Positions 18,001-24,000 of a stretch of DNA of 38,484 nt are shown piece after piece (the stretch's first letter is position 1; each line of letters opens with the position of its first letter). The DNA is from a virus (Duplodnaviria; Heunggongvirae; Uroviricota; Caudoviricetes), in IMG/VR virus record IMGVR_UViG_2718218100_000014. One strand, given 5' to 3'. Made by a program: the position numbers.

Positions 18001-21000
18001 CCGTTTTCATGTCATCCGTTTTCAGCTTAGGCAGCATAAACACACCTTCGGTCATGCCGTCGCCTGTTTCACCCTGTGGAATATCGGTCAGCGCCACCGC
18101 AAAAACATCGCCCACCTGCACCAGATCTCCGCTGCTGATGGCTGCACTGGCAACAATCGCCACCGTTTTTCCTTCTTCTACAAAATTCTTTGCCATAACT
18201 GTCTCCGCACAGCCCCGTTCAGGGGCTGATTTCAGGTACAAAAAAAGCCCTTACGGGCCATCAGAGTTGTTGTCTGCGACGTTTACGCCGTACATTTCAC
18301 CAGACCGCGGTGATCAACTGGCGCGACACCGGCGTCAATACGCACTTTCGTTGTCACGCCATCCACACTGAAGCCCTCCATCTGATCAATATATGGCGTA
18401 TCCACACCGTTGAGATAAGCCACTTCAATCGTATCGGAGCCTTTTGACGCAGCCAGGTAGAAGGTGGTCTGGCTGTTATCATCAAGACGAGGCTCTGCAA
18501 TAACGGTCGCAAAATCTTTCACCGGGTTAATAATACCGGCGTTAATGTCAGCCCCCTTGACACTTGAGGAGCGAATGACCTGGTTAGCAACAGACTCCAT
18601 CGCCGTCGGTACCAGTACGAACGCAGGACGAATATTCAGATGACGCTCCCCCTCTTTCTGAACGCGCATCAACTGGCGGGCTTTATCCAGCGATGCCACG
18701 TCCATTGCAGCGCTCTCCAGTACGTTTGCATGTTTCGCTTTATCGAACAGACTTACATTATCTGTGGAGATTTTCGGGTTAGACGTCAGAATGGCATAAA
18801 CCAGATCGGCAATAGTGGATTTCGCCGCACGGCCCAGTTTCATCGGGACATCGGTCAGCATATTCAGATCATCATTGATAATGGCCTGACGGGTGATACT
18901 GAACAGCTCGCCATAGGTAGCCAGTGCAATAGTGGCCTGTTTATCTCCGGTGGTGACGTATTTATATTCCGCCCCTTCACGCACCTGACGCAGAGCACTG
19001 AAGCCCCCCATACCCACACGATGGGCAATTTTAAAATCAGACAACTGACCTTTCCGCGTCCACTGTTCATAGGTTTCAGGGGCATCTTCCCAGCCCTGCA
19101 GAATGGCTTTGTTCGCAACATCCAGCAGAATATTACCGAAGTCAGACGTACTGTGTGTGAACGCCGCACCGACCATCTGCATCGGGTTATAACTGGAAAC
19201 CCCAATACCCCGTTCAGTCAGTGACATACGGGCATATTCACGCAGGGTCATCCCGTTGTAGACATTATCACGTTCGGTTTTTTCAAATCCGGCACGCGCC
19301 ATCAGCGCCTGGCGGATCCCATCCCCCACAAAATTACCGTTTCCGGCATAAATATGAGCCGGGGTATTTTTATTAGATGGCGTGGACTCGCGCCCCATCT
19401 CGTTCAACAGCTTTTCGCGGGCCTGCTCCAGCGAACATTCAGGATCGGCAAGACACTGAGCCTGCAGCGTCTGATAACGCCCGCCAAACATGGCAAACAG
19501 ATCATTAATACCGTTTACACGCGCTTTTTGCTCTGCCAGTACCTGCGCACGGATACTGTTTTCATCCACCACAGGTGCTGCTGCCTGCACTGGCGTCCGG
19601 GAGGCTGCAGGTCCATCATCCTGTACGCGTGGAGCACTGTTGCGTGGCGGAGTAATCATGTTTCGAATGGATTCCGGCATCTTTTTAAATTCCTCTGTAC
19701 GTTTTGACTGAATACATGCCATTGCCTTAACGGCTGGCGTCACCTGATCAGCAAATCCATGTGCCAGACATTCGGCACCGGACATCCAGGTCTCATCCGC
19801 CAGCATGGCAGCAATTTCATCGGTGGTTTTCCCGGTTTTCTGTGCATAAGCGGGTAACAGAACCGCCTCAACTTTATCGAGCAGGTCGGCATAGGTGCGC
19901 ATGTCCTCCGCATCACCGCCCGTAAAGCCAAATGGTTTATGAATCATCATGAAGGAGTTTTCCGGCATAATGACCGGTTTTCCCACCATCGCAATGACCG
20001 ACGCCATTGACGCCGCCACACCGTCGACATAAACGGTAATGGACGCACCATGTGTTTTCAGTGCATTAAAAATGGCGATGCCTTCAAAGACATCGCCACC
20101 CGGTGAATTGATATTGAGATTAATGTGGGTGATATCGCCCAGTGCATTCAGATCACTGATAAACTGCTTCGCTGTAACACCCCAGAAACCAATCTCGTCA
20201 TAAATATAAATATCCGCGTCACTCTGGTGACCAGCCTGCATCCTGAACCAGGAATTATTCTTCGGACTGGTCGTCGGTGTGCTGCGGCTCCTGTCGTTTC
20301 GTTGCGGCACTGCTGCCTCCTTTATCACTGGCCGGATCGGTATCAAATACCAGATCCAGCTTGCGGTTTTCATCAATTTCGGCCTTGCGCCGACGTTTGA
20401 CATCATCCGGATTACGACCACCTGCACGTACCCAGTCTGATTCTGTCGCTGCTCCACCACGAATCTGAATTTTCCAGGCCTCAGCCTCCTTAACAGGGTC
20501 AATCCACGGCATCACCGGTCCGGAATACACCGCGGTATACAGTGAAGAACGGTCAAGATCGCGGGGTAGCCTGATAACACCGGATGCCACAGCCTGTTTC
20601 AGCCAGGCACGATACATCGGGCGGGTGACGGCACCAATAAACCAGTCCTGCAGGATCAGGTAGCCATCAGTGGATTCAACCAGCTCCTGACGCTGGGCGC
20701 TGTAAGTGCCGTTATAGTTGCGCGCTGTACTGGAAAAAATTCAGACGACTGCCCGCCGCCACGGCACGCAACTGACCATTACGAAAAGTTTCAAGGTTAG
20801 GATTGGGGCGATCCGACTTCACCATTCCGATTTCTTCGCCGGGTTTCAGATCGTCGTAAATAATGCCTGGCTGAATGGTAAGCTCGCGTTCCTTATCCTT
20901 GCTGCCATTACCATCCGGTTCATAGCTCTGCCCATCGCCTTTCCGGATGTACATCCCCAGAGCAGCGGCGATCCTTGCTGCAGTCAGCTCAGAATCCTCA

Positions 21001-24000
21001 TACTCTTTCAGGGCACTGAGGCGGATCAGCACACCGGACAACAAAGACGTCCCGCGCATCTGGTGCAGACGGCGAACAAATTTAAGATGCAGCATTCGCT
21101 CTGCATCCACTTCTTTGGTTTCCATCTGCCGTCCGGATACGGGACGGCTTTTATACACCAGATATTTTTCGGGACGCCCCCAGTCATCAACAAACACGCC
21201 CTGATTCAGCCTGTTGCTCTCATCACTGGTCATGGGAATAAAGTCTGGCTCGAGCGCCTCCAGCCAGAAATGAACACCGGCAGAAGGCGTCAGGCTGTTT
21301 ATGCGCCCGGAAACCATCTGGGCAAACACCTCACCATCGCGCAGCCAGGTACGCAGCATCAGACGTTCCAGCATCGGACGGGTAAACTGCCCGGTGACTT
21401 CCGGACTGACAGACCATTCACTCCATCGGGTGCGTATCTCCGCGGCCAGATCACGGGCAATGGCCCCATTGCGTAATACCGGATGTGGCTCGACAATAAT
21501 CCCGTTTTTCCCCACCACCCGTTCTTCCAGCTTGTCAAATACACCAATAACCAGATCGTGGTTGTTATCAAGGTAACGGGCCTGCTCACGTAACGACACG
21601 GCCCCGTACTGGCTTAACTGGTCGGCAGTTCGGTTTTCCCGCCGGGCTTTGTGTGTCCGCGTCGTTTTTACGGCCTCATAAGCCTGGATCACCGCACGGG
21701 AACGCAGCCTTGCCGCTTTCCATCCTGGTGAAAAAACGCCAATCACATCATCAAGAATTGCCATCAGAACCTCGCCAGCCGGTACCCGGGATGCCCCCGT
21801 CGTCGTGTAATCAGAGCCGCAAGGCGGCGCTCCCACTCCTGCCGTCCCTGCCGGATCTCAGATAAGTTTTCCATGGTCATCTGCTGACCATTAAAGGTGA
21901 CGGATTTTCCGTCCAGCACCGCCATTTCAGCTTCCGTATAACGCTGAATCATGGCTTCGATATCATTCTGGTTCATAACCATCCTCCGGAAGTCAGCCAG
22001 GGGTTAACATCGTCAGTTACTGTTTTCTTCCGTTTTTGTTTTTTAACAGGCGTGGATACCGGTTCCGGTGAGGGTGACGGTTCGGTACTGTCCGGGACAC
22101 TCTCCAGCCAGGTTTCCCGGCTCGCCCACCCCGGTGCATCCGGCCAGCGGATCTTTTCGTATCCATGCAGAATGACCAGAGCCTCGGCATACACCATCAG
22201 GTCAAAAGCTTCGTTGGCACCGCGACCCGGCTTACTCCATTTCCCGTCACTACTCCGCTCTTCATACGTCAGTTCGTCGTAAAACCAGCTCCCCAGCCAG
22301 TCAGGGAAATGCACATAGCCGGGACCTGGAGAGTCACGCCATAACGCGTTATTCACCCGGTCTTTCAGTGCATCCGTCTGAAGAAGCCAGAGCGGCACAT
22401 CACCTGCGGCCTGCGCCCGTCGGCCCGTTCGTCCGGTGTTATCAGGGAATGTACGGGTGATCAGTTTTGCGCGCCGGATGCTGTCGCCCTTAAACAGGTA
22501 AATACGTTTACCAAGGCCATCACGACGGCAACGACGCCAGAATTTATAGGCATTATCAGTGACCCCGTCTTCACCGCCGGAGTCCACCGCCATTGCCATC
22601 AGTCGCATTTGTTGAGAAGGATCGGAGGCCAGCGGCCAGCTTTTATGAAAAACATCCGTCAGCAGGACATCCCAGTCTTCCGGATAGCTGGCCGGATCAA
22701 TTCGCTGGCTCTCACCGTCGCTGTCACCGCGCAATGACTGCGTGATGTTGTAACGATCAATAATCCAGCGTTCGCCACGGCTGCCATAGCCCGTTACCTG
22801 AACCACAAAACGGCGATGACGTCCCGCCTGCACATCCACTGTCGCCACAAGGAAATTAACGCCATCCGGCACACTGCTGGAAGGAACTGGCTCTGCCCGC
22901 TGCTCAAGCAGTTCACTTTTTCGTTGCTCCATGCTGGCGCGGGGAAGATAAGGTAATCCCCAGTCGGTATTGATAACCGTCTTGAGTGTTTCTTCACTTC
23001 CGGTTGTCTCGTATTCCTGTTCTGCAGTAAGCAGTTTGTAAACGAGTTGCGAGAGTGTCTGGTAAGCAGCTGCCGGACCCTCCATCCAGAATGACGCAAT
23101 ACGTGAGCGTCGGGGATCACCATAACGACTACCATCCGCATTGATGGATTCACCATCCCGCAACCAGACCCCACGTCCGTTCAGCTCACGTTTTTGTTCA
23201 GGCATAATCCGTCCTGAACAGGAAGGACACTGAATATAAGCCGCCTCACTTGCCAGCACGGGATCGGCAATATCACGGAAACCAGCAACCACATCGCCGC
23301 AGGGCTGAAAATACTCACCACAGTGTGGACAGGGCCAGTACCAGCGACGGCGATCGCCACGGTTATAGAGCGACAGTATCCCCGTGGTTGGTGGAGCCTC
23401 ATGCGGTGAAGTCCGTCGCCATTTCACATCCTTCACATCCCTGCCGGGGGAACTCTCCACCAGCGTCATACCACTGGACATAAATGTGGTGGTACGTTTT
23501 GAGGCAAGAGAGAAGGCATCCCCCTCGCCATCAATATCTTCCGGAAAACGGTCATAATCCGTCAGCGCCACGCATTTATAATCTGATGAGGACATGATAT
23601 TGACTGACGGCCAGCCGATTTTCAGGTAGTTGCCAGCAAGGAATGTTCTGTCATAAACGTTGTTGTCATTTTTGTTCGGACTCAGGCGACTGACCACTTC
23701 CGGGCTGACGCGAAACGTTCTGGCGAGTCGTTTTTTGGAGTGTTCGCGGGCTTTTTCCTCCGTCATCTGAATGATCAGCATATCCGCAGGATCGCAAATC
23801 ACGTTGTAAATCACCCAGCCGTCAATCAGGCCGATAGTCTTGCCGGTTCGTGCCGGGCCAACAAATATCACTGCGTCGTATTCACGCGAGGCCAGGCAGT
23901 TCATCGGCTCAATAACATACGGTGCCACCAGCGGATCCCACGGGACTGAGTTCCCGGCCCCCATGGGCACCCGCATATACTGAGCAACGGCATCAGCAAC

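Follow-up and report, generated by a model that had tools for sequence, protein, structure and literature searches.

Reading frames at the portal locus

We analysed the IMG/VR virus record IMGVR_UViG_2718218100_000014, a 38,484-nt stretch of Caudoviricetes DNA (hereafter, the window), with a focus on its minus-strand portal gene, which is broken into two pieces. Aligned to prophage Sp3 of Escherichia coli O157:H7 Sakai, the reverse-complemented window shows 6 mismatches and 1 gap in 36,164 nt (99.98%), and a further 1,006 nt match at 100%. On account of this near-identity and collinearity, the window is assigned to the lambdoid prophage Sp3 (Sakai)/CP-933M (EDL933) of E. coli O157:H7. A first-pass annotation had described two portal-like open reading frames (ORFs) in different frames between 20255 and 21764. 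Both are present, and their outer limits match those of the intact gene in relatives. The locus is made up of the following features:

20712..21764, minus strand: portal N-terminal fragment, 350 codons from the ATG at 21764 to a premature TAA at 20714-20712 (ORF and translation)
20255..20733, minus strand: C-terminal part of the portal gene, about 159 codons, shifted to +1 with respect to the frame of the N-terminal fragment (frame analysis)
20734..20740, minus strand: portal lesion, minus-strand A+T6 (plus-strand A6 at 20734-20739 and T at 20740) versus G+T5 in intact relatives (alignment with the O145 and O55:H7 copies)

On the plus strand, positions 20730-20745 read CTGG AAAAAA TTCAGA, which places the A6 run (T6 on the minus strand) at exactly 20734-20739. 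The 350-codon fragment has the C-terminus AAGSRLNFFQYSAQL, followed directly by its stop. In the +1 frame, a TGA at gene nt 1022-1024 lies directly upstream of the run, after which the frame stays open from nt 1025 (window 20740) as far as its stop codon at 20257-20255. The two frames overlap by only 28 nt (gene nt 1025-1053), and the T6 run lies inside this overlap. As anticipated in the first-pass annotation, in silico removal of a single T from the run fuses the two ORFs, yielding a 1509-nt reading frame of 502 codons with zero internal stops.

The N-terminal fragment matches the Pfam family PF05136 (Phage_portal_2) over profile positions 3-324 of 354 (E = 8e-74, 249.3 bits, against a gathering cut-off of 32.9 bits), and the repaired protein matches it over positions 3-354 of 354 (E = 7e-81, 272.5 bits). 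Searched alone against Pfam, the C-terminal piece gave no match. Residues 304-489 of the repaired protein align to the solved portal 8vhx straight across the junction, as do residues 305-440 to residues 332-474 of lambda gpB (PDB 8K38; phmmer E = 2.5e-4). Alignment of both halves to intact portals confirmed the position of the junction: the repaired ORF is identical at 501 of 502 residues to the portal WP_000985947.1 of E. coli O145 RM8988-C1, the sole difference being N342 instead of S at the lesion codon. Because the repaired protein matches PF05136, aligns to the solved structures and is nearly identical to intact portals, the C-terminal piece can be taken as portal sequence. In the window, no single uninterrupted frame covers the whole portal domain (wing, stem, clip, wing and crown). 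Judged by its sequence, the locus is a pseudogene of the lambda-family portals (PF05136) rather than a functional member.

At the junction, intact copies read CTG AGT TTT TCC AGT (L-S-F-S-S), whereas the window reads CTG AAT TTT TTC CAG. The lesion is compound, GAGTTTTTCC having become GAATTTTTTCC, with an additional T and an adjoining G-to-A substitution at window position 20740. Its net effect is one added base within codons 342-343 and a stop at codon 351. The earlier description of a one-base homopolymer frameshift is correct in that an extra T shifts the frame, but incomplete in that the ancestral state also differs by the G-to-A change. A trans-frame product would be recognizable by its diagnostic junction peptide, AAGSRLNFSSTAR.

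Existing annotations reflect the break in several ways. The Prokaryotic Genome Annotation Pipeline (PGAP) starts the N-terminal fragment at a GTG at 21836 and names the product 'phage portal protein' (WP_010904538.1), and it gives the same name to 20255-20590 (WP_127446149.1). The Sakai annotation lists the N-terminal piece as ECs_0826 and gives the C-terminal piece, ECs_0827 (20255-20617), the flag 'pseudogene, phage portal protein'. Two coding sequences (CDSs) named 'phage portal protein' are found in EDL933 and in all PGAP-annotated strains.

Distribution and origin of the broken allele

Alleles were counted as exact matches to 80- or 81-nt contexts centred on the run; copies with other single-nucleotide polymorphisms (SNPs) in the context were not individually classified. 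The database, which also served for megablast of the region, comprised 5,426 complete E. coli genomes. The counts were as follows:

A+T6 (window), 81-nt context: 286 complete-genome records with an exact match
G+T5 (intact relatives), 80-nt context: 677 complete-genome records with an exact match
A+T5 (the simple repair of the first-pass annotation), 80-nt context: 0 records with an exact match
G+T6, 81-nt context: 0 records with an exact match

Intact-type copies total about 1,560 when other SNPs are allowed. All named examples among the 286 A+T6 records are either O157:H7 or genomes of O157 size, and they include Sakai and EDL933 (two independent EDL933-lineage records). In an evenly sampled ranking of the context, O157-type genomes (5.4-5.6 Mb) span 81 bases at 100% identity; the rows directly below them, from diverse E. 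coli, span 80 bases at 97.5%, and no sampled row falls in a 98.8% identity class. Full-length matches sampled at ≥99.9% identity (about 300 top matches) each carry two portal CDSs or, in Sakai, the pseudogene flag; those sampled at ≤99.2% have a single portal CDS over a 1600-base span, bar one copy broken by an insertion sequence (IS). Every sampled non-O157 relative has the 80-base span and a single portal CDS.

Homopolymer indels are a frequent artefact on some sequencing platforms, and the first-pass annotation had allowed for a sequencing or assembly error, with T5 and an intact portal in the true genome. This proposal did not survive the comparison. The same 81-nt context recurs in 286 complete genomes assembled independently in many laboratories, Sakai among them, and independent assemblies of the lineage agree in run length. 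The A+T5 version that an error would predict occurs in zero genomes, and the G-to-A substitution beside the run is not a product of homopolymer miscalling. A T6 run that 286 independent assemblies share, and that has a base substitution beside it, is not a miscall, and we regard an error as extremely improbable. A phase-variable switch for portal production, with the T run as a contingency locus, is just as hard to credit. Although homopolymers are the usual substrate of such switches, all 286 O157-type copies are equal in run length, no T5 or T7 variant was found in the O157 context (by exact match for A+T5 and among the sampled rows of the ranking), and a T6 run is short for efficient slippage.

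The first-pass annotation had also considered that intact relatives might end at the first stop. They do not: the frame reads through to 502 aa in O145, O55:H7, mEp460 and cdtI. The phages mEp460, cdtI, Ayreon, Tritos and phi458 carry an intact portal gene with 98.4-99.1% identity. E. coli O55:H7 CB9615, from the closest non-O157 lineage to O157:H7, also has this prophage next to ybhC, and the 1509-nt portal gene of its copy is intact (WP_000985949.1). This copy retains an intact integrase and excisionase and a complete immunity/replication region, which encodes a LexA-family repressor, a cro-like helix-turn-helix protein, cII, O, P, ren and ninB. Because the CB9615 copy is intact at the same site, the portal lesion is placed on the O157:H7 branch. 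By this comparison it is derived, was acquired after the O55:H7/O157:H7 split and is fixed in the lineage.

Few other changes separate these genes. Between the repaired ORF and the O145 copy there are 10 nucleotide differences, nine of them synonymous and the tenth in the lesion codon. From O55:H7 the repaired ORF differs at three: nt 321 (window 21444), which is synonymous; nt 1001, which is private to O55; and nt 1025, the lesion. The SNP at nt 321 is private to the sublineage of the window, Sakai keeping the ancestral base. In strain 2571 the portal is 100% identical to that of the window. By these alignments, the gene was under purifying selection until shortly before it broke, whichever mutational route was taken.

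On the O157 branch, as represented by Sakai, the two adjacent changes of the lesion are the only ones in 1.5 kb; if independent, the chance of the second falling beside the first would be about 2 in 1509. No single-step intermediate (A+T5 or G+T6) was found by exact match in the 5,426 complete genomes. A simple origin by one extra T was rejected, as the A+T5 80-mer has no exact match in these genomes and the alignment shows G+T5 to be ancestral. Given the lack of intermediates and the absence of other changes on the branch, the lesion most likely arose in a single compound event (G to AT), a two-step origin through an extinct intermediate being less likely.

Consequences for the portal protein

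Residue 342 of the repaired protein aligns gap-free to residue 369 of lambda gpB. In gpB, the wing comprises residues 24-249 and 368-452, the stem 250-279 and 343-367, the clip 280-342 and the crown 453-511, and Gln379 of the tunnel loop contacts DNA (PMC10721106). According to the alignment, the 350-aa product ends at the stem/wing boundary. It retains both segments of the stem, the clip and the first segment of the wing, but not the second wing segment, which carries the tunnel loop, nor any of the crown. From the established architecture of portals, such a fragment should not form a working dodecameric portal.

Both pieces are called as CDSs by PGAP, and a split but functional portal would require the 350-aa fragment to act together with a separately initiated C-terminal piece, for example the 111-aa PGAP CDS that starts at 20590. 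We consider this scarcely credible. About 40 residues would be missing between the break and the first possible restart, and this stretch includes the conserved SRNY..YS..R and the tunnel-loop equivalent (PMC10721106). Such an arrangement occurs in no relative compared, and the Sakai curators marked the C-terminal piece as a pseudogene.

Full-length portal could also be made by recoding, either through a +1 ribosomal slip (tRNA-Phe on UUU UUC) or through transcriptional slippage on the T6 run, programmed or leaky. Restoration of the frame must fall within the 28-nt interval between nt 1025 and nt 1053, which holds the U6 run, and if tRNA-Phe slipped by +1 there, from one UUU to the UUU that overlaps it, the product would be exactly the repaired protein. 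However, the U UUU UUC heptamer is a -1 motif, whereas a +1 (or -2) shift is required, and the A-site codons are ordinary (UUC, CAG), with neither a stop nor a rare codon. Appreciable slippage of RNA polymerase needs runs of about 8-9 or longer, and T6 is shorter. The frameshift is confined to the O157-type copies (286 records), being found neither in the approximately 1,560 related copies nor in O55:H7 or the isolated phages. Because the gene is intact in related copies, in viable phages and in the sister lineage, the frameshift is not a conserved recoding site, and conserved recoding was ruled out by the allele distribution. A head requires just 12 portal subunits (PMC10721106), but the prophage cannot excise or replicate in any case. 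Taken as a whole, recoding is very improbable.

One further scenario, to which we give equally little probability, is that rare +1 slippage at the U6 run supplies a trickle of portal and that Sp3 heads thereby package the DNA of other O157 prophages. Were this so, Sp3, whose terminase, ClpP-capsid fusion and tail genes are intact, would contribute heads although otherwise dead, an extension of the prophage-prophage complementation described by Asadulghani et al. (PMC2669165).

We conclude that the portal split is almost certainly a true, fixed loss-of-function mutation that makes the gene a pseudogene within the defective prophage Sp3/CP-933M. No result of the analysis contradicts this interpretation, and the uncertainties left are small: low-level restoration of the frame at the U6 run is conceivable, the C-terminal part is free of further stops, although divergence is too small for this to argue for selection, and the allele counts are of exact 80- or 81-mers. 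In the sequence of events that we favour, codons 342-344 of the O157:H7 lineage changed, after the split from O55:H7, from AGT TTT TCC (S-F-S) to AAT TTT TTC C, with the extra T in the T5 run and the adjoining G-to-A most likely introduced by a single compound replication error. Translation now exits the portal frame at codon 343-344 and reaches a stop nine codons on, and the capacity for head assembly is presumably lost.

The surrounding prophage and related systems

The window extends from nleH1-1 to the 3' end of int. It ends inside the prophage, and the ybhC and ybhB flanks fall outside it; in E. coli O157:H7, Sp3/CP-933M is integrated next to ybhC. The best megablast matches of the region are O157:H7 strains at 100-99.9% identity, and the Sakai match falls within a feature annotated 'prophage Sp3, lambda-like phage'. 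Six SNPs distinguish the window from Sakai (positions 30796, 21444, 18919, 15611, 9077 and 4852). The sole length differences are an IS in int and one base fewer at about position 935, in the nleC-nleH1 intergenic region. Around the portal gene, the head module contains the following genes:

21973..24075, minus strand: terminase large subunit, 700 aa, intact (Pfam GpA_ATPase and GpA_nuclease)
21764..21976, minus strand: small gpW-like head-tail adaptor gene, directly upstream of the portal gene (ORF; RefSeq WP_001072975.1)
18283..20310, minus strand: ClpP-like prohead protease/major capsid fusion, 675 aa, intact (Pfam CLP_protease 31-191, Phage_capsid_4 378-672)

This order (terminase large subunit, gpW-like gene, portal, ClpP/capsid fusion) is the canonical lambda-like one, with the broken gene in the position of the portal. 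In phages mEp460, cdtI and Ayreon, the counterpart of the gpW-like gene bears the annotation head-tail adaptor or gpW. The start of the protease/capsid fusion gene overlaps the final 56 nt of the portal reading frame; the fusion is a known arrangement and is named so by PGAP. The minus strand also carries genes G and T (15416-15802 and 15078-15407), which encode tail assembly chaperones. The lambda-type slippery sequence GGGAAAG is absent from G/T, the G ORF ending in CCG GAA AAG TCC TGA, and the expected site for a programmed -1 G-T frameshift is not obvious in these genes.

Besides the portal lesion, two further disruptions and a set of cargo genes were mapped:

36165..37474, minus strand: IS3-family insertion sequence, 1310 bp, in int (ends and flanks read; OrfA of 108 aa with HTH_Tnp_1, OrfB of 296 aa with rve)
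32336..32337, no strand assigned: deletion junction, 7,432 bp (7.4 kb) relative to CB9615 (the blastn breakpoint joins positions 20624 and 28057 of the O55 locus)
1-882, 1709-2728 and 2762-3742, minus strand, and 29514-30473, plus strand: virulence cargo nleH1-1, nleC and nleB2 (type III effectors) and the lpxR (lipid A deacylase) region, respectively (mapped Sakai annotation)

The IS is flanked by an ATG target duplication and accounts for 1.3 kb that the Sakai and O55:H7 copies lack; from its size and ends it may be IS629. It leaves int fragments at 36101-36164 and 37475-38484, interrupting the integrase after codon 21. Sakai and strain 2571 have no IS in int, yet at the same spot they show a net 4-bp loss that frameshifts the gene and looks like the footprint of imprecise IS excision. 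The 7.4-kb deletion removed the 5' part of bet, gam, kil, cIII, the repressor gene, cro, cII, O, P, ren and most of ninB, of which the last ~30 nt remain at the junction. In CB9615, by comparison, the ClpP-protease/capsid fusion gene (locus positions 40084-42111) contains an internal stop and bet is frameshifted; head assembly of the same prophage was presumably lost independently in O55:H7 and O157:H7, via different genes.

The window carries multiple inactivating lesions, in int, the immunity/replication region, bet and portal, as expected of Sp3. In an in silico and experimental survey of the prophages of Sakai, Asadulghani et al. (2009) scored the Sp3 portal as 'D' (defective; PMC2669165, Tables 1 and 2), with the repressor and replication functions absent and the integrase and recombination functions defective (PMC2669165). 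They recorded no excision and no circularization, replication or packaging (PMC2669165, Table 2), in Sakai rather than the strain of the window. The suggestion in the first-pass annotation that the element is cryptic is thus borne out by the IS in int, the 7.4-kb deletion and the published defectiveness of Sp3 (PMC2669165). Since the disruption of int and the deletion of the immunity/replication region would have killed the prophage independently, the portal lesion is best understood as neutral decay of a domesticated element that may be kept for its cargo, nleB2, nleC, nleH1 and lpxR. By the mapped Sakai annotation, nleH1-1, nleC, nleB2 and lpxR are intact amid decayed phage functions.

Both the portal defect and the cryptic status of Sp3 were already known in the literature (PMC2669165). 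The present analysis adds that the lesion is compound, with no intermediates in 5,426 genomes, that it arose after O157:H7 had split from O55:H7, and that it maps to the stem/wing boundary of the portal fold. The lesion stably marks the O157:H7 lineage and can be used for annotation or lineage typing. It also illustrates prophage domestication, in which structural genes decay and virulence cargo is retained. Beyond such bookkeeping its significance is slight, confirming the window as the well-studied Sp3/CP-933M.

The closest known counterparts are ECs_0826/ECs_0827 of Sakai Sp3 and the two portal CDSs of CP-933M in EDL933, which represent the same locus, with a 1601-nt region 99.9% identical and the same A+T6. 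Relative to Sakai Sp3, the window differs by one synonymous portal SNP (21444, nt 321) and the 1310-bp IS in int. At a greater distance, the 502-aa portals of mEp460, cdtI, Ayreon, Tritos, phi458, CB9615 and O145 RM8988 show 98.4-99.2% nucleotide identity to the window gene. These phages and prophages share its gene order of terminase large subunit, gpW-like gene, portal and ClpP/capsid fusion. Their portals have G+T5 and a single ORF, whereas the portal frame of the window, with A+T6, ends at codon 351. Lambda gpB (8K38) belongs to the same Pfam family, PF05136, and occupies the same genomic position, but is a distant relative of the window portal, and where lambda has separate C/Nu3 and E genes, the window has a single ClpP-capsid fusion gene.

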